Position numbers and translations under genes: made by a program
The notes under the pieces: model-generated
What the model was told of the DNA's origin: nothing
Database searches by the model: none
What the model saw: the letters and a program-made list of their open reading frames with translations, nothing else
Shown here: positions 1 to 29,879 of the stretch, piece by piece
How positions within the stretch are numbered: the first letter of the stretch is position 1
Layout of the letters: each line of letters begins with the position of its first letter
NCBI GenBank assembly: GCA_041737295.1
Contig: JBGSSA010000163.1
Coordinates: 6,898 to 70,897, forward strand
Length of the DNA: 64,000 bases
Reading direction: 5' to 3'
From: Bacteroidales bacterium
GTDB lineage: Bacteria; Bacteroidota; Bacteroidia; Bacteroidales; UBA10428

Positions 1-2
1 CT

Positions 3-122
3 TATGACAAGGAATCCGGCAAGGTGGTTTGGAAATTGAACCTTGCGCCTTCGGAAGAAAAGAAGCTGCGGCTTTCCTTCGCCATTAAGTATCCGAAGGA
101 TAAACAGGTGTTTGTGGACTGA
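3..122 (+). CDS. 3' end of a gene cut by the window edge; resembles the C-terminus of DUF4139/MuiA-family proteins
   Basis: Open frame YDKESGKVVWKLNLAPSEEKKLRLSFAIKYPKDKQVFVD* ending at TGA 120-122; G-x-x-x-W-x-L-x-L-x-P-x-E...KYPK pattern. Confidence 0.55.
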   Translation, partial: YDKESGKVVWKLNLAPSEEKKLRLSFAIKYPKDKQVFVD

Positions 123-154
123 CAAGTGACAAGTGACAAGCGACGAGTGACAAG
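121..154 (+). repeat. Heptamer tandem repeat GAC(A/G)AG(T/C), about 5 copies, starting at the upstream stop codon
   Basis: gacaagt gacaagt gacaagc gacgagt gacaag. Confidence 0.9.
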
Positions 155-157
155 ATA

Positions 158-190
158 AAACCCCAGGAATTTTCAGATTTCCTGGGGTTT
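158..190. terminator. Probable bidirectional intrinsic terminator between convergent genes
   Basis: AAACCCCAGGAA-loop-TTCCTGGGGTTT inverted repeat with A/T tails. Confidence 0.75.
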
Positions 191-191
191 A

Positions 192-270
192 ACTGCGTGA
201 CTGCACGACTTTCTTATTGTAAAACTGCAAAACTCTTCCTCGTCCCTCGTCCCTTGTCCCTTGTCACTCA
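192..270 (-). repeat. Octamer repeats (ACTGC-containing) followed by heptamer repeats (GGGAC(A/G)A on minus strand) at the nitroreductase 3' end
   Basis: actgcgtgactgcacgact; aaaactgcaaaact; cctcgtccctcgtcccttgtcccttgtcactca. Confidence 0.8.
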
Positions 271-881
271 ATGATTTCAAGGGAATCGGCGAGGTTTGGC
301 TTTGCCTTCGGCTTATGTTCCGACCGGGAATGACCTATGACTACAAAAGCGAGTAATTTTTCAGGTGCATTGATATTCAGCATCTCTTCTATTTCCTGTC
401 TTGCGAACATGGGGCCGCTGAGCCAGCAGGCGCCATACCCCATATCAACAGCCGTAAGCAGGATGTTTTGGATACTGGCCCCGGCACTCTGGATATCCGG
501 ATAATTCCGCAGAATATTAATCTCATCGTGAGTGAGTTCAACAGCCGTTTCAAGCACAGTTTCATAGGGCTTAGTCACCAGGGCAAGCAAAACAGGTGCA
601 TCCTTAAAAAAAGTGGAAAACCAGGTGACCTGGGTTTTTACATTTTTTGAAGCAATGGATTTGGAGGAAGGCAGGTTTTCGATCTTAGCGGTTACCGCAT
701 CGGCCATCCTGTTTAGCAAATCTTTTTTTGTAATGGCAATATACCTCCAGGGCTGGAAATTATTTACACTGGGAGCCAGGCCTGCACGCCGCACCATCTC
801 CCGGACATCTTCCATATTTACTTTTTCTTCGTTAAAGATCCGAATGCTTGTCCGGGCTTCGATTGCTGCTTTAAGTTCCAT
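264..881 (-). CDS. Nitroreductase family protein
   Basis: RTSIRIF, APSVNNFQPW, QNILLTAVDMGYGACW motifs. Confidence 0.9.
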   Translation of the reverse strand: MELKAAIEARTSIRIFNEEKVNMEDVREMVRRAGLAPSVNNFQPWRYIAITKKDLLNRMADAVTAKIENLPSSKSIASKNVKTQVTWFSTFFKDAPVLLALVTKPYETVLETAVELTHDEINILRNYPDIQSAGASIQNILLTAVDMGYGACWLSGPMFARQEIEEMLNINAPEKLLAFVVIGHSRSEHKPKAKPNLADSLEIIE

Positions 882-1001
882 GGCCTGAGTATATTTTCAT
901 CCAAATTAAAATATTTTTATATAAAAATGAAACCATGCAGCAACTATTTTGGTAAACTGTGAAACATCTTGGAGAGCAGCGCACCAACCCAGGTTTTTTT
1001 T

Positions 1002-1841
1002 ATGATGGTTACAGATCAGGATTATCAGCTCTTTGTTTATGCCTTGAAGAATTCTTCGAAGTATGACTTTAGCCAGTATTCGGAGAAATCCCTGAAGCGG
1101 AGGATCCTGAAAATACTGACTGATCATCGGCTTACGTTGCCCGCTCTGATCTCAAGAATGAAATGTGATCCTGATTTTGTAGAGAAAATCGTGAAGGAGA
1201 TCACCGTGAATACGAGCGAACTCTTTCGTGACCCGCAGGTTTGGCAGACCCTGCGGTTTATAATCCTTCCCCGGTTCAAAAACAACAGTATCATCAATAT
1301 ATGGCATGCAGGATGTTCCACGGGCCAGGAAGTTTATTCCATGCTTATCCTGCTTAATGAATTAAACCTCCTTGAAAAATCTAAAATCTACGCTACCGAC
1401 ATCAACAGTGATGTGATGGATACGGCTAAACTGGGCGAATACCGTTACCGGTTTAACCTTTCCTATCTCGATAATTTCGATAAGGTGATCAAGGAAAATC
1501 CATATAACTATGATGAATATAACGATGTTCCGTATGATAAATATTTCACACTCGACAAGGCTACGGATACAATCCGTATGAAGCCTTTCCTGAGGGAAAA
1601 GCCCGTTTTCAAAAAACATGACCTTGTGACGGAAAACAATACATTGTATGTAAAATTCGACCTCATCCTTTGCCGGAATGTGATTATATATTTTAATTAC
1701 AACCTGCAATGCCAGGTCTTTGATCTTTTTCACCAGAATCTGTATGACAGCGGATGCCTGATGTTGGGCCTGCATGAGACGATCCTGGGGGCCCATGCTG
1801 CCAAGTTTCAAAAAAAAGGGCATGCATACCTTAAAAATTGA
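1002..1841 (+). CDS. cheR: CheR-family protein-glutamate O-methyltransferase with canonical motifs
   Basis: ITVNTSELFRDP, IWHAGCSTGQEVYS, ATDIN, DLILCRNVIIYF; ATG 1002 preferred over the ORF-track start 969. Confidence 0.9.
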   Translation: MMVTDQDYQLFVYALKNSSKYDFSQYSEKSLKRRILKILTDHRLTLPALISRMKCDPDFVEKIVKEITVNTSELFRDPQVWQTLRFIILPRFKNNSIINIWHAGCSTGQEVYSMLILLNELNLLEKSKIYATDINSDVMDTAKLGEYRYRFNLSYLDNFDKVIKENPYNYDEYNDVPYDKYFTLDKATDTIRMKPFLREKPVFKKHDLVTENNTLYVKFDLILCRNVIIYFNYNLQCQVFDLFHQNLYDSGCLMLGLHETILGAHAAKFQKKGHAYLKN

Positions 1842-1904
1842 TCCTCTTAGGATATATTTGAATTATTTGAAAACCAAAAGATTATTACCAATAACCAGTA
1901 AAAA

Positions 1905-4079
1905 ATGAAAATTAAAACAACCATATCTGCCATTTCAAAAAATATGTTTTTTGGCATTGGGTTTGTCCTTTTTGCAGGCCTGGTGCTCCTGATCAACTGG
2001 TTTTTTAATTCGCCGGTCAAACAGGCTGATATGATTAACCGCCGACTGGTCAGAACAGAACAACAGATCAATATGCTGAGGTCCGCTCAAAATGAGCTAA
2101 TTCTCCGGTATGACATGGCGGAGGACCTTTTTGCCGATACCCAAAGCCTGTCGGAGGAACAGGTAACATCCGCATTAAATACCGTGAAGAGTGATATTGA
2201 ATACTTCCAGGGCTTCCGTGTAGTGAAAAATCATCCGGCAATAGCCACTTCTCTCAGCAACCAGGGTATTGCACTGAATGAATACGAAGGGAACCTGAAA
2301 GTTCTTATGATGGCGACCGTAGAAAGGGGCAGTGAGCATTCAGGGCTTATAAGCCGCTGGCTTGAAGTAAGCTCAGGAATGCTGAATGCAGCCTCCGACA
2401 ACGGACCTGACATGGTAAGGATGGTTGAAAAATTAAAGCAGACCGAAACAGCATACCTGTTGAATAGCAACATGAAAGGTATAAATGATATCCTTGCATT
2501 GGCCGATGAAATCAGAACCAGGCTTTCGGGAAAAGAAACAGGGATTAAGGTCAGTGACCTGGATTCATACACTGCATTAACAAACAACCTTGTTTCCGTT
2601 GACACGCGGATCGGAACATCCGGAAACCCGGGAATTATTTCGAATACCGGTAAAAGCCTTGAGGCGCTCCTAAATGCCTCCTCGAACACAACCCTTCTCA
2701 TGAATGAGGCTCTGCAAAAAAGGAAAACCGTATGGACTATTGCCCTGTATGTAATAATAGTCCTGATAACCATTTGCGGGATCATTTTCCTCATAGTGAT
2801 CACGAACAGGGTAATCACAACCCCCCTGTCAACTACCGCCGCTTATCTTGGTGACATTGCAGCCGGTAAATTGCCTGCGCAACCCCTGTCCGAAGAGGGG
2901 CTTCCCGAAATTAAGCAGGTTGACCATGCCGTGAATGAACTGTTAATTGAATTAAAAAAGAAAACTGATTTTACCCGTTCCCTGAATGAGAATAATCTCG
3001 GTATACAGCTAATCGCTTCCGGTCCCCACGATGAACTGGCCGGGGAACTGAACTCACTGCAGAAAAAAATGACGGATACTGCCGATGTTCAGAGAATGAA
3101 CGATGTGGAAAATGCCAAAAGACGGTACATTAATGAAGGCCTGGCAAAATTTGCCGAGATTTTGCGGACGCAAAGCAATGATATCCATTTGCTGGGAGAT
3201 GCTTTTATCCGTGAGATCGTAAAATACCTGGGAGCTATCCAGGGCGGGTTTTTCCTGCTTAATGAGGACAAGGGCGATGAAAAAATGCTGGAACTGGTAT
3301 CCTCATTTGCCTACAACCGCAAGAAATACATGCAAAAATCGCTTTACCCGGGTGAAGGACTTGTAGGAACATGTGCCATGGAAAAGCAGATCATCAACCT
3401 TACTGAAATTCCGGAGGGATATATCACAATCACCTCGGGACTTGGCGATACAAAGCCCGACAACCTGCTGCTGGTTCCGGTATTGCACGAATCGGAACTC
3501 ATCGGTGTGCTTGAAATTGCCTCCCTGGCCCTGTTCAAGGAGCACGAAATTCAGTTTGCAGGAGAGGTTGCCGGCAGCCTGGGCGCAACGATCATTTATG
3601 CCCGCAATAACCAGCGAACATCCGAGCTGCTGATGAAATCACAGCAACAGGCGCTTGAAATGTCGGAACAGGAAGAGGAAATGAGGCAGAACATGGAAGA
3701 GCTGAAAGCTACACAGGAAGAGTCATCGCGCCGTGAAGAAGAATTCCGTGGCATTGCCGAAGCCATCAGCCAGTCGCTTTTTATGATTGAGTACGGCCTG
3801 GATGGCATAATCCGTGACGTGAATGATAAATTCTGCATTTTCATGGGCCTTACACGTGAGGATATCCTGGGAAGAGATCATCATACCGTCCTGGCAGGTA
3901 CGCTGATTCCGGATACGTTGTTCTGGGAAGAACTGCAACGAAACAATCATGTAACGCTGACTGAAAAAATAAAAATAGGCAGGAAACAGCATCATCTGAA
4001 GGAACATTTTGCCGTGGTTCAGAACAAGGATGGCATTGTCGTCAGGTACATCAATTTCATTACCGAAGTTACAACATAA
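1905..4079 (+). CDS. Membrane sensor: TM-periplasmic domain-TM-HAMP-GAF-methyl-accepting-like coiled coil-PAS, no output domain
   Basis: Two hydrophobic segments; GAF motif GEGLVGTCA...ITSGLG..PDNLLLVP; heptads EQEEEMR QNMEELK ATQEESS; C-terminal PAS-like DGIIRDVNDKFC. Confidence 0.8.
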   Translation: MKIKTTISAISKNMFFGIGFVLFAGLVLLINWFFNSPVKQADMINRRLVRTEQQINMLRSAQNELILRYDMAEDLFADTQSLSEEQVTSALNTVKSDIEYFQGFRVVKNHPAIATSLSNQGIALNEYEGNLKVLMMATVERGSEHSGLISRWLEVSSGMLNAASDNGPDMVRMVEKLKQTETAYLLNSNMKGINDILALADEIRTRLSGKETGIKVSDLDSYTALTNNLVSVDTRIGTSGNPGIISNTGKSLEALLNASSNTTLLMNEALQKRKTVWTIALYVIIVLITICGIIFLIVITNRVITTPLSTTAAYLGDIAAGKLPAQPLSEEGLPEIKQVDHAVNELLIELKKKTDFTRSLNENNLGIQLIASGPHDELAGELNSLQKKMTDTADVQRMNDVENAKRRYINEGLAKFAEILRTQSNDIHLLGDAFIREIVKYLGAIQGGFFLLNEDKGDEKMLELVSSFAYNRKKYMQKSLYPGEGLVGTCAMEKQIINLTEIPEGYITITSGLGDTKPDNLLLVPVLHESELIGVLEIASLALFKEHEIQFAGEVAGSLGATIIYARNNQRTSELLMKSQQQALEMSEQEEEMRQNMEELKATQEESSRREEEFRGIAEAISQSLFMIEYGLDGIIRDVNDKFCIFMGLTREDILGRDHHTVLAGTLIPDTLFWEELQRNNHVTLTEKIKIGRKQHHLKEHFAVVQNKDGIVVRYINFITEVTT

Positions 4080-4109
4080 TCAGGGGTACAACCAATACAC
4101 CACCAAACC

Positions 4110-4940
4110 ATGCCTGAACTGGGAATTGTTGACATACGGGAAATTATAAGGGTTGTGAAATCAGAATACGATTATGATTTTGCAAATTATGCCCTTACCT
4201 CTTTCAAGCAGCGGCTTGAGCGGCTCATGTCTTTGTATAATATCAGCAGTATAGAATCGCTGACCGGAAAATTAAAAGACGAAAGCGCTTTCATTGACAC
4301 CTTCCTGCACGAAATTACTGTACCCTCCACGGAAATGTTCCGGGATCCTTCGTTGTGGAGATGGTTGCGCGAAGAATATTTTCCGAAGGTTATGGATAAA
4401 TTTCCCGGCAAATTCAAGATCTGGCTGCCCTCATGCGTTTCAGGCGGTGAGCTGTTTTCACTGGCCATCCTGCTTTCGGAATCGGGATTTCTCGATAAGG
4501 TACAGATCATTGCCAGTTGCCTCAGCCTGAAAAGCATCGAGGAAATTAAAAGCGGAAGTTATGACCAGAAAAAAATGGAAATTTCCGAAGAAAATTACAA
4601 GCGTTTCAATGGTTCACGGCAGCTTTCAGATTACTATAAGAGTGACCGTACCGGGATAACAAGGGATACATCGTTAATAAGCCAGGTTGAATTTAAAAAA
4701 CTAAATATTAACTTTGATACTGCACCCCAAAACGTCAGGCTTATATTATTCAGAAACAGCATGATATACTATTACCCCACGCAACAGGAAAAGGTTTTGC
4801 GGATACTCTATAATTCCTTATCAGCTTCAGGACACCTTGTAATCGGCATACGTGAAAAATTAACCGGAATGAGCCCCGGACGCGATTTTGAATTGGCAAA
4901 TGAACTTGAATGTGTTTATCGTAAACGAATATTCAGTTAA
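4110..4940 (+). CDS. cheR: Second CheR-family protein with degenerate SAM-binding motifs
   Basis: YDYDFANYALTSFKQR and TEMFRDP retained; IWLPSCVSGGE, IASCLS and RLILFRNSMIYY replace the canonical motifs. Confidence 0.8.
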   Translation: MPELGIVDIREIIRVVKSEYDYDFANYALTSFKQRLERLMSLYNISSIESLTGKLKDESAFIDTFLHEITVPSTEMFRDPSLWRWLREEYFPKVMDKFPGKFKIWLPSCVSGGELFSLAILLSESGFLDKVQIIASCLSLKSIEEIKSGSYDQKKMEISEENYKRFNGSRQLSDYYKSDRTGITRDTSLISQVEFKKLNINFDTAPQNVRLILFRNSMIYYYPTQQEKVLRILYNSLSASGHLVIGIREKLTGMSPGRDFELANELECVYRKRIFS

Positions 4941-4943
4941 GCG

Positions 4944-5504
4944 ATGAATTACAAGGCAGTAATAATAGGCGGATCCGCCGGCAGTTTCCAGGTAGTAACC
5001 CGGATACTGAACGGTTTGCCAAAATCATTTCCGTTGCCTGTGCTGCTTTGCCTTCACCGGCTGAAGCATGTACGTTCGGGATTCGTTGAAGCCCTTTCCC
5101 TTAAATCGAACATACCCGTTGAAGAGCCCTATGATAAGGATCTGCTTCGCCCGGGAAAGGCCTATCTTGCCCCGGCCAATTATCATATGTACATAGAACT
5201 AGCTAACCGTATTGCGCTTTCAACAGAGGAAACCGTAAATCATTCCAGGCCGTCAATTGATCTTTCATTTATCACGGCGGCCAATGCCTACCGCGAAAAG
5301 CTCATCGGGATCATTCTCTCGGGGGCCAATAAGGACGGTGCCGCGGGGCTTAAAAAGGTTCACGACAACGGGGGCATTGCCATTGTTCAGGATCCGGCTG
5401 AATGTGAGGTGAAAACAATGACCCAATCAGCCCTGCAACTTACCCGGGTGGATTTCGTATATACCACAGATCAAATCATTAATTACCTTGTAAAGCTTAA
5501 GTAA
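4944..5504 (+). CDS. cheB: Stand-alone CheB methylesterase (no receiver domain)
   Basis: IGGSAGS (Ser), LHR (His), SRPSID, ILSGANKDGA (Asp); 186 aa. Confidence 0.9.
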   Translation: MNYKAVIIGGSAGSFQVVTRILNGLPKSFPLPVLLCLHRLKHVRSGFVEALSLKSNIPVEEPYDKDLLRPGKAYLAPANYHMYIELANRIALSTEETVNHSRPSIDLSFITAANAYREKLIGIILSGANKDGAAGLKKVHDNGGIAIVQDPAECEVKTMTQSALQLTRVDFVYTTDQIINYLVKLK

Positions 5505-5508
5505 AACG

Positions 5509-6294
5509 ATGCAAAGCCTCAGTAAATACAGACAATTCAGCATAGCAGCGATGATCATTATGGTCATCTCTTTTGCACTGTCATTTGCCTCGTTATGGAA
5601 CACGGTTTTGACAGGTAAAATCAAGTATACGGGATGGAATATTGCTTTTATTCTAATTCTTTTTATTTCCGGAATGCTCCTTTTTTACTTCGCATACCGG
5701 TTTACGGATGAAAAAGCCGCCGAAGAGGAACAAAAAAAAGCATATGAATCAGGAAAAGCCGAAATTCTGAATGAACTTGAAAAAAGAAACCAGGTTGAAA
5801 AACAAACCCGGCAAACCGATGACGAAGACATTGAAAAAGCAGTATCCCAAATAATGACGGGGATCAAATCGGGCCGTACCCTGAAAACGGGAAACAAGAT
5901 CCTGGCCACCCTGGCCAAACATCTTGATTTTGTGCAGGGCATCCTTTATATAAAAGAACCATCAGGCGAATTATTTATCCCGGAAGGAGAATATGCTTTG
6001 ACCGGACAAAAACCCGCTGCCTTTCAAAAGGGAGAAGGATTGGCCGGACAGGTGGCGGATAGCATGACTCCCATGGTACTTTACGACATTCCGGAACAGT
6101 ATTTTTCTGTAGAATCGGCACTGGGAAGTTCCAAACCATGTTTCCTGCTGCTTACCCCGCTGATTTTTGAAGGCGAATGCTTTGCCGTGATCGAACTGGC
6201 TGCCTTCAAAAAGCCGGATGATCTCACGGGTAAAATTATGCAGAAATTATCTGCTGAACTGGGACCTATATTACATACTTCTTTTGCTGCCTGA
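5509..6294 (+). CDS. 2-TM membrane protein with a C-terminal GAF domain only
   Basis: Two N-terminal TM segments, charged helix, GEGLAGQVA...VESALGSSKPCFLLLTP. Confidence 0.75.
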   Translation: MQSLSKYRQFSIAAMIIMVISFALSFASLWNTVLTGKIKYTGWNIAFILILFISGMLLFYFAYRFTDEKAAEEEQKKAYESGKAEILNELEKRNQVEKQTRQTDDEDIEKAVSQIMTGIKSGRTLKTGNKILATLAKHLDFVQGILYIKEPSGELFIPEGEYALTGQKPAAFQKGEGLAGQVADSMTPMVLYDIPEQYFSVESALGSSKPCFLLLTPLIFEGECFAVIELAAFKKPDDLTGKIMQKLSAELGPILHTSFAA

Positions 6295-6300
6295 TGACCC

Positions 6301-8922
6301 ATGAATGAAGAAAAAAGAAATACAATCCTTCAGGATATTATAAACAGTGAAACATTTGTCACTGCGCTTGTTGCCGGTATACTGTTCCCGCTTATCGCAT
6401 GGAGTATTCAATTCGTACACGGCAACGTTGCCGTTTCCGTATCGGGAATCGGTACCATACACAGGAATAATCCCGTATTGTGGATCCTTGATATCGTTCC
6501 TTTCATATTCATTGCAGGATCTTATTTCCTTGATCAGCGGCAGAAAAGAATACACGGTCAACTATCAACCCAGCTGCATGAACGGGATGCCCGCATGAAT
6601 ACGATGGCAGATTTCGCCCAGAATATCGGGGAAGGGAATTACACATCAAAGCTGGCACTCGATACGAACAATGACACGCTGGCCCAGTCGTTGCTTGTTA
6701 TGCGCGACAACCTGCTGCAGAATACGAGAAAAGAATCTGAACTCAGCTGGATAGCCGGGGGCAAGGAAACCATATCCGACATCCTGCAACAATATAATAA
6801 GATCGATGAACTCTCCAACCGGGTCATTCATTCCCTGGTTAATTACACCCGGCTTGTTCAGGGCGCCCTGTATATTTATGATGAAGATACAAAAACTCTC
6901 AAAAGCGCCGCCACTTATGCCTATAACCGAAGGAAATTCATCACACAGGAATATAAACTGGGATATGGATTGATCGGGGAATGTGCCTACGAGATGGACT
7001 ACATTTACCGCACCGAAATTCCGGATGAATATGTAAGCATCAGCTCCGGCCTCCTGGGAGACCGGAAACCGCGCAGCCTGCTGCTAATACCGCTTATTTC
7101 GGATGAAAAGCTCCAGGGTGTGCTTGAATTTGCTTCCCTCGAAGCCCAGATCCCCCAACTAACCATTACCTTATTAAAAGAACTCGGCGAAATTATTGCC
7201 AGGACCTTTTTCAACTTGAAAATCAATCAGCGCACCGAAAAGTTACTGATCGAATCACAGCAGATGACGCTTGAATTGCAGGAAAATGAGGAGGAACTGC
7301 GGCAAAATGCAGAGGAAATGCGGGCTACCCAGGAAGAACTCAAAAAGTCGAATGATCACCTTGAATCGAAAATCCTTGAGGTGGAAAATGCCCAGAAAAG
7401 ACAATATTCGCTGCTCGAAAATGCATCAGAGATCATTGCCATTTATGACGAAAACATGGTAATGACCTATGAAAGCCCGTCTGTCATTAATATCCTGGGC
7501 TTTACACCCGAAGAAATGATGGCGGGTCAGGATATGAACCGGCTGACCCGAAAAGGGGAAACCAGTATGCGGAATATGTTCAAACAGCTGCTGGCCAATC
7601 CGGCCGAACCGGTTGTGATACAGTATACCTACATGAAAAAGAACGGGCAGAAGATATTCCTGGAGGCAACAGGACGTAATCTGCTAAGTGATAGCGCAAT
7701 CAGCGGTATCATTATCAACTCAACCGATATTACCGAACGGAAACGTGCTGAAAGGGAAGAGCGTTTAAAAAGCAAGATGCAGGCCTTATCGGAAAATTCA
7801 CTCGATCTGATCATACGACTCAGCACGGTAGGGCAGTTCTTTTACGCCAACCCCGTGGTCAGCAATTTCATGGATATAGATCCACGCGACATTCTGAATA
7901 AAACCCTCAACGAAGTGCCGATGTCGGAGATGCTGAAGGCATATTTCAGGGAAACTCTCGACACAATCAAAGCATCCCCCGAAAAGCGGGCTGCAGAAAT
8001 TACAATTTCCACTGTGACTGACGGGGTTCAAACAGACCGGATCATGAGTTTTGCAGCCATCCCCGAATTTAATGAGAATGAACTGGAGACCGTGTTATTT
8101 GTGGGACATGATATTACCGAAGCCAAACAGATTGAGCATGAGATCCAGGATAAGAACAGGAAAATTGAGGATTCGATCAATTATGCTCAGCGCATTCAGA
8201 GTTCTATACTACCGGATATTCGTTCCATAAGGGAATACCTGCCCAAATCATTCGTGTATTATAAACCCCGTGATGTGGTCAGCGGTGACTTCCCATGGTT
8301 CTTCAACAAGGGCAATGATATTTATATCGCTGTGGTGGACTGCACGGGCCATGGCGTGCCGGGTGCCCTGCTGTCGTTTGTAGGCTATTTCCTGCTGAAT
8401 AATATTGTTGACCGTGACAAGAAGTTCTCTGCCGCCGAAGTTTGCGACCTTCTTCATTTCGGCGTGAGAAAAACCCTGAAACAGGATAGTGAGGACGCCG
8501 AGGCCAGGGATGGCATGGATATCGCATTTTGCAAAGTGAACCACGTTGACCGTGAATTACAGTATGCAGGAGCACACCGCCCGCTTTACCTGTTGCGAAA
8601 CGGTGAATTGCTTGAATATAAAGGTGACCGGAAGGCAATCGGGGGAATACCCCACCGCAAAAAAGAGGAGGAGAATTTCACCAATTATGTGATCAAGTAC
8701 AAACGTGGCGACAAGTTTTTCTTCTTTTCTGACGGACTCCCCGACCAGCTGGGCGGTTCAGAAGGAAAAAAATACTCACCCAAACGTATTCGCGAACTGA
8801 TCCTTGAAAATAAAAGTCTGCCCATTGAACAGTATTGTACTCTATTTGAGGAGGACTTTGATGTCTGGAAAGGTGAAAGCAAGCAAATTGACGACGTTTT
8901 GCTGATCGGAATTGAATTTTAG
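6301..8922 (+). CDS. SiaA-like membrane PP2C/SpoIIE phosphatase: TM-HAMP-like-GAF-EE coiled coil-PAS-PAS-SpoIIE
   Basis: GYGLIGECA GAF; ENEEELR QNAEEMR ATQEELK; two PAS/PAC units ending DITE; RDVVSGDF, DCTGHGVPGA, DGMD, FSDGLPDQ, IDDV PP2C motifs. Confidence 0.88.
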   Translation: MNEEKRNTILQDIINSETFVTALVAGILFPLIAWSIQFVHGNVAVSVSGIGTIHRNNPVLWILDIVPFIFIAGSYFLDQRQKRIHGQLSTQLHERDARMNTMADFAQNIGEGNYTSKLALDTNNDTLAQSLLVMRDNLLQNTRKESELSWIAGGKETISDILQQYNKIDELSNRVIHSLVNYTRLVQGALYIYDEDTKTLKSAATYAYNRRKFITQEYKLGYGLIGECAYEMDYIYRTEIPDEYVSISSGLLGDRKPRSLLLIPLISDEKLQGVLEFASLEAQIPQLTITLLKELGEIIARTFFNLKINQRTEKLLIESQQMTLELQENEEELRQNAEEMRATQEELKKSNDHLESKILEVENAQKRQYSLLENASEIIAIYDENMVMTYESPSVINILGFTPEEMMAGQDMNRLTRKGETSMRNMFKQLLANPAEPVVIQYTYMKKNGQKIFLEATGRNLLSDSAISGIIINSTDITERKRAEREERLKSKMQALSENSLDLIIRLSTVGQFFYANPVVSNFMDIDPRDILNKTLNEVPMSEMLKAYFRETLDTIKASPEKRAAEITISTVTDGVQTDRIMSFAAIPEFNENELETVLFVGHDITEAKQIEHEIQDKNRKIEDSINYAQRIQSSILPDIRSIREYLPKSFVYYKPRDVVSGDFPWFFNKGNDIYIAVVDCTGHGVPGALLSFVGYFLLNNIVDRDKKFSAAEVCDLLHFGVRKTLKQDSEDAEARDGMDIAFCKVNHVDRELQYAGAHRPLYLLRNGELLEYKGDRKAIGGIPHRKKEEENFTNYVIKYKRGDKFFFFSDGLPDQLGGSEGKKYSPKRIRELILENKSLPIEQYCTLFEEDFDVWKGESKQIDDVLLIGIEF

Positions 8923-8948
8923 TAATATTGTAATAAATCTGTTAACCT

Positions 8949-9530
8949 ATGGATAATAAAAAAGATGTGAAAGGTTTTCTGGAATTTGTATACGAATTCT
9001 ACAAATCCATGAAAGCTCATGAAATTACCCTCGTGTATGAAGGCGAAATTACACATCAGATTACGAAAGCTTTTACTTCGCTTACCGAATCGAACATGTC
9101 AAAAGAAGATGAACCGAATTCAGTTCAGCGAAAAGTATTTCATGTGATGGTCGAATGCCTTCAGAACATCAGCAAGCATGCTGATGACTTTACATCCAAT
9201 GATTACCTTTTTTCAGGCCGCGGAATCTTTCTTGTCAGCAAAGGTGAAAACGAATATAGCGTTACAACCGGAAATGCTGTTGAAAATGAGAAGATTGAAT
9301 ACCTCACGGAACTGCTTGAAAACATCAACCGGATGGACAAGGAAGAATTAAAGGAACTGTATAAAAAGCAGATGAAAGAGGGCCGGCTTTCCGAAAAGGG
9401 AGGCGCCGGACTTGGCTTTATCGATATCAAACGAAAAACCAACAAGGAACTGGAATATCATTTCCTGCCCATTTCAGATGATACCTCCTTTTTTCTGCTG
9501 ACATCCACTATTTCAAGATCTGACAATTAA
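8949..9530 (+). CDS. SiaB-family protein kinase (GHKL-like)
   Basis: LVYEGEI, VMVECLQNISKH, LKELYKKQM, GGAGLGFIDI; sits between a PP2C gene and siaC. Confidence 0.85.
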   Translation: MDNKKDVKGFLEFVYEFYKSMKAHEITLVYEGEITHQITKAFTSLTESNMSKEDEPNSVQRKVFHVMVECLQNISKHADDFTSNDYLFSGRGIFLVSKGENEYSVTTGNAVENEKIEYLTELLENINRMDKEELKELYKKQMKEGRLSEKGGAGLGFIDIKRKTNKELEYHFLPISDDTSFFLLTSTISRSDN

Positions 9531-9543
9531 AATCATTCAATAT

Positions 9544-9918
9544 ATGGAAACAATCAAAATACAAGGTTCCGAAGACACTCCAAAAATAATTCTGGATGCC
9601 GGAAATGAAATCCTTGAAATCAGCGGCCGTTCATTGCCTGAGGATGTGTCATCTTTCTATGAACCGGTTCTCAACTGGCTGAATGAATATGCTGAGAATC
9701 CCAACAAAAAGACCGTATTCAACTTCAAGCTCACCTATTTTAATACAGCTTCTTCCAAATTACTGCTCGATATTCTGATGAAGCTGGAGGAAATGCATGA
9801 GAAGGGACAGGAAGTACTGATCCGCTGGCATTATCCCGACGATGATGAGGATATGGCAGAGGCCGGCGAAGAATACGCCGATATTGTTGATGTACCCTTC
9901 GAACAGGTATCCTATTGA
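9544..9918 (+). CDS. SiaC-family (DUF1987) regulatory phosphoprotein
   Basis: DTPKI, ISGRSLPED..FYEP, YFNTASSK with Thr at residue 68, WHYPDDDEDMAEAGEE. Confidence 0.88.
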   Translation: METIKIQGSEDTPKIILDAGNEILEISGRSLPEDVSSFYEPVLNWLNEYAENPNKKTVFNFKLTYFNTASSKLLLDILMKLEEMHEKGQEVLIRWHYPDDDEDMAEAGEEYADIVDVPFEQVSY

Positions 9919-9970
9919 ATATACCCTTAATTTATGGCCGTTTGCCGGTGTCAGTTAAACTGGTTATTGA

Positions 9971-12900
9971 ATGAGTGAAGAAATTCTCAGAGCGTTAATG
10001 CAACTGTTTGCTATAATAGCAAAACAGGATGAAGGGGTAGAAACTACCCAGGTTGAATATGTAAAGAATTTTTTGCAGCAACAGCTCAACGATGAAGAAG
10101 TAAAGGAATACTTTCAGCTTTTCAGGCAGTATAGCGGCATGGAAGATGACGGCAACGGTTCCGACCCGGATGAAGATAAGGGCGTACGGAAACTTACTTC
10201 TGTCAGGGATTCTGTCCGGATCCTCGGCCTTTGTAAAAAAATCAACAAAACCCTGACCCAGAAACAAAAAGTAGTTGTTCTGGTCAGACTTTTTGAAATT
10301 GTGAGTGCCGACCGGAAGTTTACCGATCAGCGAATGCAGATCATCAATACGGTTAGTGATGTTTTTAAGGTTGAGAAGGAGGAATTCACAAGCATAGAAT
10401 CCTTTGTGATCAGGAATGAATCCCATGAACTGGATGATAATAACATCCTGATCATAAATGACAAACCGGACGTACCGCGGGAGGCAAAAAAAATACCGAC
10501 TAAACAGCTGAATGGAGATATTTTTGTACTTAAGATCAAAAGTGCGGATCTCTACTTTTTAAAATATACCGGAAATGAAGACCTCTTTTTAAATGGCCTT
10601 CCCATCCGGAATGACCGTATTTATCTGTTCGCCAACGGAAGTACAGTAAAACTGCCCAAGGCGGCGCCCATTTATTTCAGCGATGTGGCAGCCCATTTCC
10701 TGGCAGATACCGTGTCACACCCGATATCCTACATAGCCAGGGATCTGGAATTCAAATTCCCCAACGGGAATACCGGATTGCATCATATCAGCTTTTCCGA
10801 AACCCATGGACGGCTCATTGGGATCATGGGTGCCAGCGGAGCCGGAAAAACTACACTCCTTAATGTGCTCTGTGGCATTGACACACCATCGAATGGCGAA
10901 GTGCTGATCAACGGCATCGATCTGCACAAAAACAATGAAAAACTGGAAGGCGTAATCGGCCTTGTGCCCCAGGATGACCTGTTGATTGAAGAACTTACCG
11001 TATATCAGAACCTGTATTATAATGCAAGGCTTTGTTTTGAGGATAAAAGCGAAACTGAAATCGACGAGCTGGTCAATAAAATACTCGTTAACCTGGGGCT
11101 TTTCGACCGGAAAGAACTGAAAGTAGGGTCCCCCCTGAAGAAAATGATCAGCGGCGGACAGCGTAAAAGGCTGAACATCGCCCTGGAACTGATCCGTGAA
11201 CCTGCAATCCTTTTTGTGGATGAACCAACCTCAGGACTTTCATCCAGGGATTCGGAAAACGTCATGGACCTACTCCGTGAACTGGCCCTCAAAGGCAAAC
11301 TTATTTTCGTTGTCATCCATCAGCCCTCTTCGGAGATTTATAAGATGTTTGACAAGATGATCATCCTCGATACCGGTGGATATATGATCTATTACGGAAA
11401 CCCGGTAGAAGCAGTGATGTATTTCAAACGGCTTGATGCACAGGTAAACAGTGAAATAGGAGAATGCAACGCCTGCGGAAATGTAAACCCCGAACTGATC
11501 TTTAACATTATCGAAGCCAAGGTGGTGGATGAGTTTGGAAATTATACCGATGCCCGTAAGGTAACACCGCAGCAATGGGATGAGCATTTTAAGCAATTGG
11601 TAGATTACAGTGAATCCCCGCAGAATGAAGGCAACCCGCCAAAGAACCTGAGAATACCCGGATGGTTCAAACAATTTGGCATTTATACCGTCCGTGATTT
11701 CTTTTCAAAGATCAGCAATAAACAGTATATCGCACTGAGCCTGCTTGAGGCGCCGGTACTGGGTTTTATCCTGTCGTCAATAATCCGGTATATTGAAGAT
11801 CCGGTTGCCGGCCATTATGTATTCAGGATAAATGAGAATATCCCCATTTTTATCTTCATGTCCCTGATCGTAGCCCTGTTTCTCGGGCTTACAATCAGCG
11901 CGGAGGAGATCTTCCGCGACCGGAAAATATTAAAGCGGGAACAGTTCCTTAACCTCAGCCGTTCAAGCTACCTGATTTCGAAAATTATGATCCTTTTTTC
12001 GATCTCTGCCATCCAGTCGTTCCTGTTTGTCATTGTTGCCAACCAGTTTTTAGGCATCCAGGGAATGCACTTTGTCTACTGGTTTGCCCTGTTTTCAACG
12101 GCTTCTTTTGCCAACATGCTGGGCCTGAATATATCAGCCTCCTTTAATTCGGCGGTGACGATTTACATCCTGATTCCGCTTGTTATGATTCCCATGATGA
12201 TCCTTAGCGGGGCCATGTTCAGCTACGATAAGCTGAATAAAAATATAAGCCGGGTGGATAAGGTACCGGTACTGGCTGAAATGATGGTCACCAAATGGTC
12301 GTATGAGGCCCTGATGGTGCATCAGTTTAAGGACAATATGTTCATGAAACAGAAACTGTACCTGATTGAAAAAGAAGAAAGCCAGAGTGATTATAAGAAA
12401 GTATACTGGCTCCCCGAACTGGCTGAACGCCTTGATCGTGTGCGTGCCGAAGTTCAAAGCACAGGAACAGTGAGCATGTCTTCCAATGACCTGTTGCTGA
12501 TCTCCAATGAAATCAGCAAGGAGTTGCTGACAAATACAGAACTACCGCCATTTGAGGGCATTGATGAACTTCAACCGCTGAAATTTACTTCTTCAACAGC
12601 AGACCTGGTAAGTAGCTATCTCTCGGTCCTCGACAAATACTATGGAGAGAAATTTCAGAAAATCAGCAAGCAGAAAGAAAACTATTTCAATTTTTACCTC
12701 GATCGTGATCCGGATGCCTATAACCGGTTACGAGACCAATATCATAATGAAGGGGTTTCCGATATTGTGCGCAAGGTGTATGAAAAGAATAAGATCCTTG
12801 AATATGATCACCAGCTGGTTCAGCATTATGATCCGATCTATTATGATCCATTTGTGGGAGACATATTAACGCTCAGAACGCATTTCTTTTCTCCTGTAAA

Positions 12901-13045
12901 ACCATTTCTGGGCAAACTGTTTGATACATACTGGTATAACATGATCGTGATCTGGCTGCTCACATTATTTTTGTACCTCGCGCTATATTTTGAATGGTTA
13001 AAGAAACTTATTAACTTGTCTCAACGTTTCAACAAGAACAAGTGA
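9971..13045 (+). CDS. ABCG/White-like single-chain ABC exporter (NBD then TMD) with about 250 aa N-terminal extension and a large extracytoplasmic loop
   Basis: Walker A GASGAGKTT, signature ISGGQRKR, Walker B FVDEPTSGL, H-loop IHQP; ABC2-type TM helices; TerB-like helical N-terminus. Confidence 0.88.
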   Translation: MSEEILRALMQLFAIIAKQDEGVETTQVEYVKNFLQQQLNDEEVKEYFQLFRQYSGMEDDGNGSDPDEDKGVRKLTSVRDSVRILGLCKKINKTLTQKQKVVVLVRLFEIVSADRKFTDQRMQIINTVSDVFKVEKEEFTSIESFVIRNESHELDDNNILIINDKPDVPREAKKIPTKQLNGDIFVLKIKSADLYFLKYTGNEDLFLNGLPIRNDRIYLFANGSTVKLPKAAPIYFSDVAAHFLADTVSHPISYIARDLEFKFPNGNTGLHHISFSETHGRLIGIMGASGAGKTTLLNVLCGIDTPSNGEVLINGIDLHKNNEKLEGVIGLVPQDDLLIEELTVYQNLYYNARLCFEDKSETEIDELVNKILVNLGLFDRKELKVGSPLKKMISGGQRKRLNIALELIREPAILFVDEPTSGLSSRDSENVMDLLRELALKGKLIFVVIHQPSSEIYKMFDKMIILDTGGYMIYYGNPVEAVMYFKRLDAQVNSEIGECNACGNVNPELIFNIIEAKVVDEFGNYTDARKVTPQQWDEHFKQLVDYSESPQNEGNPPKNLRIPGWFKQFGIYTVRDFFSKISNKQYIALSLLEAPVLGFILSSIIRYIEDPVAGHYVFRINENIPIFIFMSLIVALFLGLTISAEEIFRDRKILKREQFLNLSRSSYLISKIMILFSISAIQSFLFVIVANQFLGIQGMHFVYWFALFSTASFANMLGLNISASFNSAVTIYILIPLVMIPMMILSGAMFSYDKLNKNISRVDKVPVLAEMMVTKWSYEALMVHQFKDNMFMKQKLYLIEKEESQSDYKKVYWLPELAERLDRVRAEVQSTGTVSMSSNDLLLISNEISKELLTNTELPPFEGIDELQPLKFTSSTADLVSSYLSVLDKYYGEKFQKISKQKENYFNFYLDRDPDAYNRLRDQYHNEGVSDIVRKVYEKNKILEYDHQLVQHYDPIYYDPFVGDILTLRTHFFSPVKPFLGKLFDTYWYNMIVIWLLTLFLYLALYFEWLKKLINLSQRFNKNK

Positions 13046-13108
13046 AATGTAAATTAATAACATACAAACGAACTCTTTAGTTAATTTTTAAATATAACAC
13101 CACTTATT

Positions 13109-14008
13109 ATGCCCAAAGTATTTGTATATCTTCTGATTACACTGGTGATTGCCGCCTCCTGCAAATCAGGCGGACAGGAACAAAATGCTACGGTCGAAAT
13201 ACCTGATTCCGTTCTTAATCAGGGCATTGAGATTTCCGAGGAAGTTATGCAGGATATTGTTCAGAATATCTCTTCACCGGTTGAAATGGCAGCTATGATT
13301 AAAGATCTTGGCGTGCCCTATTCAATTAAGTACATTTCCCCTACTAACAGGGTAGGCAATCTGACCACAAGTTACCAGCAATCCCTTAACCTTGGCATTT
13401 ATGCCGCTGACCTGGGATACCTGAATATGTATAATAAAACAACGGCTGTCATTGATTACCTTACTGCGATAAAGACCCTATCGGATCAGATCAAAGTTGG
13501 ACAGTTCTTTGATTTTACCACGTTGAAAAGGCTTGCTACCAATAGCAAAAACCTTGATTCGTTGATGTATATTTCTGTGCACAGCTTTAACCAGATGGAT
13601 AAATACCTGCACTCCAACAACCGCACCAACCTCAGCACACTGATCGTAACGGGAGTATGGATTGAAGGGTTGTACCTCGGAACGCAGGTTTACAGACTTT
13701 CTCCGGATAAACAACTCTCTGACCGTATCGGTGAGCAGAAATTAACGCTCGATCAACTGGTTCTCGTATTGGACAAATATAAAAAGGACAAGCAATACGA
13801 AAAATTACTCGCTGAACTCATGATCCTCAAGGAACTTTACAAGCCTGTGGTCATCACATATGAGACGGGTGAACCGGAGATGGTGGAAGAAAATGGAATG
13901 CTGACAATCGTTCAACACGACAAAAGTATTGTTAATATGACTCCGGAACAGCTCACCAGTATTATCAATGCAACTGAACAAGTCCGTAACCGGTTAATAA
14001 GCTTATAA
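13109..14008 (+). CDS. Predicted lipoprotein, mostly helical, function unknown
   Basis: Signal MPKVFVYLLITLVIAAS-C lipobox. Confidence 0.75.
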   Translation: MPKVFVYLLITLVIAASCKSGGQEQNATVEIPDSVLNQGIEISEEVMQDIVQNISSPVEMAAMIKDLGVPYSIKYISPTNRVGNLTTSYQQSLNLGIYAADLGYLNMYNKTTAVIDYLTAIKTLSDQIKVGQFFDFTTLKRLATNSKNLDSLMYISVHSFNQMDKYLHSNNRTNLSTLIVTGVWIEGLYLGTQVYRLSPDKQLSDRIGEQKLTLDQLVLVLDKYKKDKQYEKLLAELMILKELYKPVVITYETGEPEMVEENGMLTIVQHDKSIVNMTPEQLTSIINATEQVRNRLISL

Positions 14009-14010
14009 TT

Positions 14011-14445
14011 ATGAAGAAATTCTTCTTAATACTATCCCTTTGCCTGTTCGTAATGTCAGCTCATTCCCAGGATATTTCTCAGCTAACGGCACAATGTGCT
14101 GCCAATGCAGGTGATGTCATGTATCTTAAGGATTTTGTTGTTAAGCTTGACCAGGGAACCCCGGGTGGTGCACCTCCTACCGTAAGATCCGCAATGTTGC
14201 TCAGCAAAAATGTTGTGTACCGCTTTTCCATATGCACAGCTCCGAATTCCTCAGGAGAAGCCGTGCTCCAGTTATTTGACGGAAGCACTATGATTGGAAG
14301 TACCTTTATCGCTCAAACAGGAAAAGAATTTCCGTTTTTCGATTTCAAATGCCAGAAGTCAGCGGTTTATCATGTATTCATTTCCTTTAAGGAAGGCAAA
14401 GCCGGAGAGGGCGTCGGAATTATGTCCTACGTGAAGAAGCTTTGA
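14011..14445 (+). CDS. Small secreted/periplasmic hypothetical protein
   Basis: Signal peptide MKKFFLILSLCLFVMSAHS; beta-rich mature part with Cys residues; 2 nt after the previous gene. Confidence 0.7.
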   Translation: MKKFFLILSLCLFVMSAHSQDISQLTAQCAANAGDVMYLKDFVVKLDQGTPGGAPPTVRSAMLLSKNVVYRFSICTAPNSSGEAVLQLFDGSTMIGSTFIAQTGKEFPFFDFKCQKSAVYHVFISFKEGKAGEGVGIMSYVKKL

Positions 14446-15417
14446 TCATAGTATTCTCAGTAACAACACTATAACGAGAAAGATCGCTAACAGGCCTTCG
14501 TTGATCCAGTTCCTGGCCGAGTTGCAGAAAAAATGGCTCAAAAGGTACGAGAGAGGAATGGCTGCAATGCTTACCATATCCATTCCAACGCCGGGAATCA
14601 CCACATAAATGATCAGGGAAAACAGGAACAGCCACAGAAAAAGCATAAATATCTTTCTTCCGTGGATCTTCATGTTATCAATGGCTGAAGCCATGTAATA
14701 GCTTGAATAAATCATCATGGCAACCACATACACCCATCCGATCAACTGAATGATGCTATAAGTCTGTTTGTGATGTTCAATTAACCTGTTGAATTCCGGA
14801 AAAAATTCCCTTACAGGTATACCGGCAAGATAATACCCTGCAATCACGAACAAATAAGGGAGCAAAAGCCCGACAAATACATATACCCATTCTCTCCAGT
14901 TTAATTGCCTCAATATAACCAGGGCAACCAGAAGGAATACGAACAGCAAAATGGCCGGAAAATAAATCAGGCTGGCGAGAGAGATCAGGAACCCTGCATC
15001 AAGGAAATTAACAGAGGGTCCATCCATTTTGTAGGTGGCAAATAACCGGAACAGGATTATGATTACAAGCAAGGAAACCACGAGGGTGGGTGTCAACAGA
15101 TGGATCGGATTAAATCCTGCCGCGAACATGATATAAAATAAGGCTGGCAGCTGCGTCCTGACCGGAATAAAAATGTGAATTGTATTTAACTGGATCAGCA
15201 GATACGCATTGGTAAGAATGATCAACAGGGCGATCACCATCGAAAGCACCCTGTAGTGTTCATTAAATGATGCCAGCCACAGGGCCGGGATTGTTCCGGT
15301 AAAGGCCTGATCCGGCAAAGGAACCGCGTTGAAAAAATCAGGGATCCAATACAAAACCGGTACCAGTACAAGCAGGACAAGAACACCAAGACTGTTGCTG
15401 TTGAAAAATCTTAACAC
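14446..15417 (-). CDS. Polytopic membrane protein (DUF6427-like, common in Bacteroidota)
   Basis: Many hydrophobic segments; FLDAGFLISLASLIYFP, WREW..GLLLPY. Confidence 0.7.
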   Translation of the reverse strand: MLRFFNSNSLGVLVLLVLVPVLYWIPDFFNAVPLPDQAFTGTIPALWLASFNEHYRVLSMVIALLIILTNAYLLIQLNTIHIFIPVRTQLPALFYIMFAAGFNPIHLLTPTLVVSLLVIIILFRLFATYKMDGPSVNFLDAGFLISLASLIYFPAILLFVFLLVALVILRQLNWREWVYVFVGLLLPYLFVIAGYYLAGIPVREFFPEFNRLIEHHKQTYSIIQLIGWVYVVAMMIYSSYYMASAIDNMKIHGRKIFMLFLWLFLFSLIIYVVIPGVGMDMVSIAAIPLSYLLSHFFCNSARNWINEGLLAIFLVIVLLLRIL

Positions 15418-15440
15418 AATAAATGAATTACCGCACTGGT

Positions 15441-15767
15441 TTATAAAAGGGCTTCTACCTTGTGTACCAGGTTACTTTTCGGAACTGCACCCACTTGCTT
15501 ATCCGCTACCTGTCCGTTCTTAAAGAAAAGAATCGTTGGAATATTCCGGATCCCGTATTTGGCTGACACTGCCGGATTGTTATCAACGTCAAGCTTTCCA
15601 ACCACTACCTGATCCTTGAAATCCTCTCCGATTTCATTCACAATCGGTCCAATTATTCTGCAGGGGCCGCACCACTCAGCCCAGAAATCAACCAGAACAG
15701 GCTTGTCAGAATGAAGAACCAGCTCCTCAAAGTTAGAATCCGTAAGTACAATTGCCATGGATATCAA
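15441..15767 (-). CDS. trxA: Thioredoxin
   Basis: VDFWAEWCGPC, IRNIPT. Confidence 0.95.
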   Translation of the reverse strand: MISMAIVLTDSNFEELVLHSDKPVLVDFWAEWCGPCRIIGPIVNEIGEDFKDQVVVGKLDVDNNPAVSAKYGIRNIPTILFFKNGQVADKQVGAVPKSNLVHKVEALL

Positions 15768-15808
15768 TATTAAATGAAAAAACTAAGTGTATAAAAGAAA
15801 AGACTCTG

Positions 15809-15816
15809 CAAAGTTA
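15809..15816 (-). promoter_or_regulatory. Bacteroidota sigma-A -7 element upstream of trxA
   Basis: TAACTTTG on minus strand matches TAnnTTTG. Confidence 0.6.
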
Positions 15817-15845
15817 TAAAAGTGCGTGTGAACAGCAAGCGGCAA

Positions 15846-29846: not shown

Positions 29847-29879
29847 TTAATTTCATGCCCTACAAATTTTACGGAACAC

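Follow-up and report, generated by a model that had tools for sequence, protein, structure and literature searches.

A Bacteroidales operon that may couple CheR/CheB methylation, through a Sia-type threonine switch, to a TerB-containing ABC exporter

We analyzed a 64,000-nt stretch of DNA from a Bacteroidales bacterium (assembly GCA_041737295.1, contig JBGSSA010000163.1, positions 6,898 to 70,897; the whole stretch is called the window below). It contains an operon of 11 genes, g1 to g11, in which genes for chemoreceptor-type methylation (CheR and CheB) stand together with a phosphatase, a kinase and a phosphoprotein of the SiaABC type and with an ABC exporter. The arrangement suggests that chemotaxis-style adaptation here tunes export, not swimming. 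The proposed chain runs from a methylation-tuned phosphatase through the phosphoprotein SiaC to the exporter. As a whole, it seemed to us slightly on the probable side of even, and its weakest link is the step from SiaC to the exporter. The proposal was built on gene order, domains, conserved residues and co-occurrence patterns, all of which were observed directly.

The 11 open reading frames (ORFs) are all on the + strand and occupy window positions 1002-14445, with intergenic gaps of 63, 30, 3, 4, 6, 26, 13, 52, 63 and 2 nt (Table 1). A first-pass annotation, made from the letters of the DNA, had described 11 co-oriented genes with gaps of 63 nt or less. The measured range of 2-63 nt confirmed this, and the domains it had assigned to the genes were recovered by Pfam and NCBIfam. 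Both borders of the operon are formed by opposite-strand genes, with a nitroreductase gene (264-881) on one side and genes for a DUF6427 protein and a thioredoxin (14446-15767) on the other. The operon is located on contig C52 of a 5.4-Mb assembly with a completeness of 95.5%. In the 11 proteins, the Pfam search found no CheA, CheW, MCPsignal, HisKA or GGDEF domain, in agreement with the annotation. The same search revealed no gene for a DNA-binding protein, a sigma factor or a cyclase in the cluster.

Table 1. Genes and candidate sites of the operon. Positions are those of the window; aa, amino acids; TM, transmembrane segment; SAM, S-adenosylmethionine; NBD, nucleotide-binding domain; TMD, transmembrane domain; REC, receiver domain.
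Feature	Position	Strand	Basis
g1, CheR methyltransferase, canonical SAM motifs	1002..1841	+	Pfam CheR 4e-36, CheR_N
g2, output-less membrane sensor: TM, ~245 aa outside, TM, linker, GAF, Glu-pair coiled coil, PAS	1905..4079	+	Pfam GAF, PAS
g2, candidate methyl-accepting site	3675..3722	+	residues 591-606, EEMRQNMEELKATQEE
g3, CheR-like, degenerate SAM motifs	4110..4940	+	Pfam CheR 1.5e-28, CheR_N
g4, CheB methylesterase, no REC, 186 aa	4944..5504	+	Pfam CheB_methylest 9e-50, residues 6-181
g5, small two-TM GAF protein without Glu-pair motif	5509..6294	+	Pfam GAF_2
g6, phosphatase: two TM, GAF, Glu-pair coiled coil, two PAS, PP2C (SpoIIE)	6301..8922	+	Pfam; SpoIIE 2e-16
g6, candidate methyl-accepting site	7291..7338	+	residues 331-346, EELRQNAEEMRATQEE
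g7, SiaB-family protein kinase	8949..9530	+	Pfam DUF6272; NCBIfam NF038262 175.7 bits, cut-off 85
g8, SiaC-family phosphoprotein; Thr68 codon 9745-9747	9544..9918	+	Pfam SiaC 6e-43
g9, TerB + unassigned 120-aa domain + ABCG-like NBD-TMD, 1,024 aa	9971..13045	+	Pfam TerB 8-142, ABC_tran 270-421, ABC2_membrane 568-782
g10, predicted lipoprotein, uncharacterised Bacteroidota family	13109..14008	+	lipobox-like N-terminus, by eye
g11, small predicted secreted protein	14011..14445	+	signal-peptide-like N-terminus, by eye; no Pfam/NCBIfam family

The operon is widely conserved. A scan with g7, in which one genome was taken per species, found more than 574 relatives. The best 80 were analyzed, and all of them were uncultured Bacteroidales or Bacteroidota metagenome-assembled genomes. 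Among the 54 loci whose DNA spans the whole region, 51 had all 11 genes in order. Two of the remaining three lacked only g2, and the third (L076) had a partial phosphatase gene together with SiaB and SiaC. The median identity was highest for g7 (89%), followed by g8 (83%), g4 (81%), g1 (73%), g6 (68%), g9 (67%), g11 (64%), g10 (58%), g3 (55%), g2 (41%) and g5 (33%). Gene order is kept while the sensors diverge strongly.

We also drew 401 genomes evenly from the phylum. SiaB-family genes were present in 23 of them and CheB in 210. Twenty distant SiaB loci were inspected. One of these, from another family of the same order (L101), had the complete cluster, and two from another family of the class (L102 and L103) had a nine-gene form with one CheR and no g2. 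The nine genes encode, in order, CheR, CheB, a TM-GAF protein, a 1,119-aa protein of sensor-HAMP-GAF-PAS-PAS-SpoIIE architecture, SiaB, SiaC, TerB-ABC, a lipoprotein and a 144-aa ORF. The other 17 loci had smaller combinations. A PP2C homologue was found within about 5 kb at 12 of the 20 distant loci, and TerB-ABC at six. The neighborhood survey that had been proposed as a check thus found the che, sia and ABC blocks conserved together, not only in close relatives but also in other families of the class.

The first part of the proposed chain concerns methylation of the GAF proteins. The transmembrane segments are at residues 15-33 and 281-299 in g2 and at residues 11-29 and 45-63 in g5. The sequence of g2 is variable, with a median identity that only g5 undercuts, and the gene is missing between the cheR genes in some relatives; g5 was found in 69 of 70 loci. 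For the PP2C part of g6, the best NCBIfam model was SiaA (model positions 395-655 of 658), with a score of 175.7 bits that is under the equivalog cut-off of 700. Immediately behind their GAF domains, both g2 and g6 have Glu-Glu pairs spaced by exact heptads, together with an E-E-x-x-A-T element, which we take to be the classical chemoreceptor methylation consensus. This segment is near-invariant in both proteins. In g2, it reads QEEEMRQNMEEL.ATQEE across 39 sequences, while the rest of the protein is 30-80% identical. In g6, it reads ENEE.LRQNAEEM.ATQEEL in 71 sequences, with one position that alternates between E and Q. The encoded methylation sites of chemoreceptors likewise alternate between Glu and Gln. 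Methylation-type Glu/Gln pairs at heptad spacing are the coiled-coil feature of MAC2 systems, a type of methyl-accepting coiled-coil (MAC) system, and g2 and g6 both have it as judged by the pattern. The other MAC2 feature was found as well, as stand-alone CheR and CheB are encoded beside the coiled-coil protein and CheA and CheW are absent from the operon.

The motif is rare in the source genome. A six-frame scan of 9,323 ORFs (100 aa or longer) found the pattern [EQ][EQ]x5[EQ][EQ]xxA[ST]x[EQ][EQ] in six of them: g2, g6, three GAF paralogues and the only canonical methyl-accepting chemotaxis protein (MCP) of the genome, where it is in the C-terminal methylation helix. A looser three-heptad pattern was found in 13 ORFs and also picked up a CheB-CheR fusion and the second methylation helix of the MCP. 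Five other GAF-plus-motif proteins of the source genome had sensor domains only (regulator propeller plus Y_Y_Y, GAF and PAS) and no output. In three complete relatives, the f15 genomes, a search with the motif region found the cluster phosphatase and eight further proteins; the six of the eight that were examined had only HAMP, GAF and PAS domains. No histidine kinase was found in the motif-bearing proteins, as g6 ends in SpoIIE, g2 has no output and the others examined are kinase-free. The PP2C of g6 is therefore the single enzymatic output among the motif-bearing proteins examined. These proteins look like a family of chemoreceptor-like sensors without output, in which one member is fused to a phosphatase. 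Homologues of the sensor part of g6 are numerous (1,279 at E ≤ 1e-10) and common in environmental metagenomes, where the public annotation is 'PAS domain S-box protein' only.

Of the two CheR-family proteins, g1 has the canonical SAM motifs. It matched Bacillus subtilis CheR (5FTW) with an E value of 5e-27, and the motifs GCS[ST]GQE, [ST]D and CRNV.IYF were present in all 63 true g1 rows. The first-pass annotation had called g3 CheR-like. Its place in the CheR family stood, and it probably does not bind S-adenosylmethionine in the usual way. The Asp of the ATD motif was missing in 65 of 65 g3-type rows, motif I reads P.C.SG.E, an altered form of the glycine-rich motif, and the protein is fast-evolving. 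Because of these changes, and because the single CheR of the nine-gene form has canonical motifs, g3 is probably a non-catalytic CheR-like accessory, judging from its residues. The methylesterase g4 had the motifs GGSAGS and LHRLKH in 71 of 71 full rows; its third motif was QDP in 66 of 72 rows, QNP in five and QEP in one.

Further che genes are present in the source genome, with four matches to CheB and five to the CheR family, one of the latter marginal. The sole canonical che cluster is on contig C93 and comprises MCP, CheA, CheW, CheR and REC-CheB. The MCP, CheA and CheW of a canonical chemotaxis locus were found only there and not in the operon. A 986-aa CheB-CheR fusion with NEELQS-type heptad repeats, MAC1-like, is encoded on contig C10 (862-3819). 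An orphan receiver-less CheB on contig C2 (30995-31519, L125) was rejected as unrelated; it is between a SpoIID-domain gene and an ABC-F ATPase gene with no CheR nearby.

The strongest argument that the cluster CheR and CheB act on the GAF proteins comes from three f15 genomes (G111, G311 and G359), all 100% complete. No MCPsignal and no CheW were found genome-wide in these three. They have a single CheB, a single SiaB and a single SiaC each, all inside the cluster. Since these genomes are without MCP and CheW and yet keep CheR and CheB in the cluster, there is no other plausible substrate in them.

The first-pass annotation had also implied that the system stands apart from CheA pathways. It is less separate than that: two genomes join a complete MCP-CheA-CheW set to the Sia-ABC module, and the source genome itself has the canonical cluster on C93. 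In G243 (L127 and L101, C1:2360000-2392000), about 21 co-oriented genes form a complete che operon running into the whole cluster. Its upstream che part encodes MCP, Hpt, CheA, two CheW, CheR, a HATPase_c protein, CheD and REC-CheB, and then comes a g2-like gene. In G363 (L106, C11:457000-476999), a che operon with MCP, CheW, CheA, CheY, a STAS protein, a HATPase_c protein and a homologue of the g10 lipoprotein diverges from an operon of the order PP2C-SiaB-SiaB-SiaC-SiaC-TerB-ABC. The second SiaC of this locus is a 365-aa protein with a C-terminal SiaC domain, and the gene after TerB-ABC encodes a PKD/CHU_C type IX secretion substrate. The PP2C of G363 is short and without GAF, and the genome has no motif-bearing protein. 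Its Sia-ABC operon is also without CheR and CheB; the nearest CheB match is about 12 kb from the SiaB genes, past the divergent che operon. In the visible 2 kb upstream of the cluster in the 80 close relatives, no CheA, CheW, CheD or MCP was found. Different lineages thus serve the Sia-ABC module with different inputs. In the lineage of the window, a single polypeptide unites the proposed methyl-accepting protein with the effector enzyme.

The middle part of the operon encodes all three elements of a SiaABC switch: a SiaB-family kinase, a SiaC with the acceptor Thr and, upstream, a SiaA-like PP2C. Against P. aeruginosa SiaB (chain 6KKO_A), g7 gave an E value of 8e-13, and the E...N and GAGLG motifs align. 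Against 6KKO_C, g8 gave an E value of 2e-17. The SiaC equivalog score of g8 was 93, under the NCBIfam cut-off of 150. Thr68 in YFNT, which had been pointed out in the first reading of the DNA, corresponds in the alignment to the threonine of YLNT in the P. aeruginosa SiaC structure. Residues Y65, F66, N67, T68, S70, S71 and K72 were invariant in 68 sequences. In P. aeruginosa, SiaC is reported to be phosphorylated on this threonine, in the peptide LLYLNT*SSIK (bioRxiv 10.1101/674879), and the unphosphorylated form is described as the active one (PMC8457831). The same eLife paper (PMC8457831) relates the SiaC fold to STAS and proposes that proteins of the SiaC family (DUF1987) regulate adjacent proteins.

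A SiaD-type diguanylate cyclase output is not evident here, as no GGDEF domain was found in the operon and none in the source genome at 95.5% completeness; control genomes have GGDEF. The genome search that had been proposed for GGDEF genes thus gave zero matches. A second DUF6272 (SiaB-like) gene is located at window positions 29880-30407, after the gene for a 593-aa Lamin-tail plus Big_5 protein (region 28065-30407), and no SiaC or PP2C gene was seen beside it. Contig C191 (116496-124454, L121) carries, in one orientation, genes for a histidine kinase with GAF and PAS domains, a LuxR-type regulator and a single receiver, together with a SiaC paralogue gene that precedes those for a DUF2807 protein and a split ABC-2 transporter. 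This is another SiaC next to an ABC-2 exporter, here without SiaB.

The first-pass annotation had called g9 an ABC exporter. The assignment as an ABC transporter stood, and what had been missed is a TerB-containing N-terminal extension of 265 aa. The protein has the marks of an ABCG-type (type V) exporter: the NBD precedes the TMD, the membrane domain is of the ABC-2 kind, and residues 268-756 align to human ABCG1 (E = 8e-40). The TIGR00955 score was 267 bits, under the cut-off of that model. A stretch of about 245 aa is between the last two predicted TM segments. TerB was present in 66 of 68 g9 orthologues; a role in binding ligands or metals has been proposed for such domains. For g10, no Pfam or NCBIfam match was found, and an Atlas search gave unnamed Bacteroidota clusters only. 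Homologues of g10 adjoin TerB-ABC copies in L101-L103, L105 and L106 and on contig C151 of the source genome, where the lipoprotein homologue is followed by TerB-ABC. The gene g11 was found in 64 of 65 related loci, and L103 has a 144-aa ORF of the same length at the same place. On contig C243 (L122), a TerB-ABC paralogue is directly followed by a gene for a 732-aa HAMP-PP2C protein; the contig stops at either side, which truncates the surroundings.

The link between SiaC and the exporter was studied in the phylum sample. The N-terminal part of g9 had 26 matches in 13 of the 401 genomes, all of one class. Nine of the 26, in eight of the 13 genomes, were less than 4 kb from a SiaB-family match. 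The two genes are arranged in different ways: co-oriented in the window, G243, G311, G359 and G111, convergent in a second locus of G243 and in G107 and G103, and duplicated in G363 (SiaB-SiaB-SiaC-SiaC-ABC). In the f15 genomes, the sole SiaC adjoins one of three TerB-ABC paralogues. The link is also supported by G363, because there a che operon with a g10 homologue diverges from the PP2C-SiaB-SiaC-ABC genes. A SiaC tree with 34 rows placed the copies next to an ABC gene mainly in two well-supported clades. The ABC label changed five times on this tree, compared with a mean of 10.7 in label shuffles, and none of 500 shuffles reached five, a contrast that is overstated because kin share labels.

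The following mechanism might connect these parts. Signals at g2, g5 and g6, and possibly at the unlinked output-less paralogues too, would set the PP2C activity of g6. The methyltransferase g1 would methylate the Glu pairs of g2 and g6, g4 would demethylate or deamidate them, and the sensitivity of the sensors would be reset; g3 would take part as a non-catalytic CheR-like accessory. The PP2C of g6 would remove the phosphate from Thr68 of SiaC (g8), and the kinase g7 would put it back. In one of its phosphorylation states, SiaC would bind the cytoplasmic extension at the N-terminus of g9, with TerB and the unassigned domain. This binding would switch envelope export by g9, with the lipoprotein g10 and the secreted protein g11 acting in the periplasm. 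A more ambitious version, which we put forward tentatively and consider possible rather than probable, is that the phosphatase replaces CheA. Output-less GAF receptors, with periplasmic propellers, helical bundles or PAS domains and the same methylatable helix, would assemble with the single PP2C member and share one CheR/CheB pair. They would give adapting temporal comparisons and gate the ABCG-like exporter post-translationally through docking of SiaC on the TerB module.

Several observations weigh against the proposed chain. The degenerate motifs of g3 are among them, and CheB g4 is without a receiver domain, so that an adaptation feedback is not evident. Methylation of the motif, its effect on the phosphatase, phosphorylation of SiaC, contact between SiaC and the exporter, the exported substrate and in fact every biochemical step are what we infer from genes. 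Transcription is a further point. A TAnnTTTG element, which we take to be the Bacteroidetes-type promoter consensus, is located at window positions 1853-1860 in the 63-nt gap between g1 and g2. Only three other such elements occur on the + strand within the first 15 kb, and this one could act as an internal promoter. Counts of promoter-like sites (32, compared with 29.7±5.7 expected) and of terminator-like sites (22, compared with 15.4±3.8 expected) were at chance level, and no Rfam family was found in window positions 1-16000. Seven short RNA contigs (151-290 nt, 0-9 differences from the window) came from two wastewater metatranscriptome runs of one study and mapped to g2, g7, the g8-g9 junction (only 24 nt into g9), g9 and g11. 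They covered small shares, 0.07 and 0.05 in the two runs, which are uninformative on the parts without cover. These contigs are a weak sign, of presence in RNA libraries and not proof of a single transcript.

The signaling part might work as proposed while the target of SiaC is encoded elsewhere, with the exporter genes just co-transcribed or neighbors. The source genome has nine SiaC paralogues in varied contexts compared with three SiaB-like genes, so SiaC proteins have other contexts. TerB-ABC was missing at 14 of the 20 distant SiaB loci, 17 of the 26 sampled TerB-ABC copies had no SiaB match within 4 kb, and the family occurs in G171 and G379, genomes without any SiaC. Thus, the exporter does not depend on Sia. 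On the other hand, the adjacency recurs in varied orientations and orders in the nine of 26 copies, for which chance or one inherited operon is hard to invoke; the only SiaC of the f15 genomes is beside one of their TerB-ABC paralogues; and the cluster offers no DNA-binding, sigma-factor or cyclase gene as a target. On balance, we consider a target elsewhere unlikely, although it is the likeliest of the alternatives. The first-pass annotation had proposed a methylation-tuned, c-di-GMP-independent Sia pathway whose output is envelope export. The motif, the lack of GGDEF, the Sia assignment and the co-conservation support it in part, and the presence of TerB-ABC without SiaC tells against its last step.

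It is also conceivable that the Glu-pair helix is a purely structural signaling helix, never methylated. The operon CheR and CheB could then serve the MCP on C93 or other proteins, and their place beside the phosphatase would be mechanistically meaningless. The canonical MCP-CheA-CheW cluster of the source genome and the contiguity of the G243 cluster with a full che operon fit this explanation, and, according to a preprint, methylation has never been demonstrated for a MAC protein (bioRxiv 10.1101/2022.05.07.491037). However, the f15 genomes retain CheR and CheB in the cluster despite having no MCP and no CheW, the che operons of C93 and G243 own a separate CheR and REC-CheB, and G363, which is without a motif protein, is also without CheR and CheB in its Sia-ABC operon. 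Moreover, the motif is common to the methylation helix of the MCP. A purely structural helix therefore seemed improbable. Finally, the flow might be reversed, with the exporter or its TerB domain sensing an envelope or metal state and controlling the availability of SiaC, so that the phosphatase and sensors are downstream. The ligand- or metal-binding role proposed for TerB would suit this, and SiaC-type partner switches are symmetric in principle, but the periplasmic region, GAF and PAS sit on the phosphatase side and the exporter is the only output domain in the cluster. We regard a reversed flow as very improbable, and the chain from the phosphatase through SiaC to the exporter is still our preferred reading.

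Two observations concern other aspects of the region. A reading of the operon as a defense system was rejected, as the only PADLOC similarity, that of g9, was of a generic ABC ATPase kind, and the seven other proteins scanned gave none. Just past the thioredoxin gene, a 1,403-aa ORF is located on the - strand (window positions 15846-20057).

In the literature searched, we did not find the combination of CheR, CheB, PP2C and partner switching, with the founding MAC paper and its supplements, which may list phosphatase outputs, outside that search. The searches also gave nothing relevant on SiaB or SiaC in Bacteroidetes, or on DUF1987 with SpoIIE and CheR. MAC proteins were mentioned together with CheR and CheB in only five papers. 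MAC systems, a prediction of 2010, have so far seen no experimental study, according to the MAC preprint (bioRxiv 10.1101/2022.05.07.491037). The locus is a compact and widespread version of a MAC system with a simple read-out, phosphatase activity on one threonine, and methylation-dependent signaling could be tested with it in vitro. If the chain is true, it would give the Sia-type switch its first concretely proposed output other than a cyclase, in a phylum member that here is without c-di-GMP synthesis. It would also be one of the few cases in which an ABC exporter is controlled directly, post-translationally and with adaptation.

Among known systems, SiaABCD of P. aeruginosa shares with the operon a PP2C with an N-terminal sensor, a SiaB-family kinase, SiaC, the same gene order and the aligned acceptor Thr. 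Unlike SiaABCD, the operon has no diguanylate cyclase and the genome no GGDEF, and the neighbor is a TerB-ABCG exporter. Its phosphatase also differs in having GAF, PAS and the Glu-pair coiled coil, with CheR and CheB alongside. RsbU/RsbV/RsbW is similar in having a PP2C, a GHKL-type kinase and a small STAS-like phosphoprotein; no sigma or anti-sigma target is present here, and a transporter takes that place in our proposal. Rv1747 of Mycobacterium tuberculosis is an ABC exporter with N-terminal FHA domains that is controlled by Ser/Thr phosphorylation. It shares with g9 the ABCG-like NBD-TMD, an N-terminal cytoplasmic regulatory extension and adjoining Ser/Thr phospho-signaling genes. Unlike in Rv1747, the extension of g9 consists of TerB and the unassigned domain. 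Its likeness to FHA is one weak PDB match of 42 residues (residues 187-228, E = 0.015) to the Mek1 FHA domain, and Pfam FHA was found in none of 68 members.

Chemosensory pathways of the alternative cellular function (ACF) class, e.g. Wsp of P. aeruginosa, have non-motility outputs. They share with the proposed chain methylation-based adaptation that leads to a non-motility output, and in G243 and G363 a full CheA pathway is indeed joined to the Sia-ABC module. Unlike the ACF class, the operon has no CheA, CheW, CheY or MCP, and the effector enzyme is fused to the methyl-accepting protein. MAC2 systems (Wuichet and Zhulin 2010, as summarized later) likewise have a separate CheR and CheB beside a Glu-pair coiled coil, and their operons are free of CheA and CheW. 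MAC proteins are described with receptor and kinase functions (bioRxiv 10.1101/2022.05.07.491037). By that description, the operon is unlike MAC2 systems in that the output is a PP2C feeding a Thr phospho-switch and several motif proteins have no output. The locus combines, in what we regard as a new way, three parts of known kinds, namely methylation of the MAC type, a partner switch of the Sia type and an exporter of the ABCG type.

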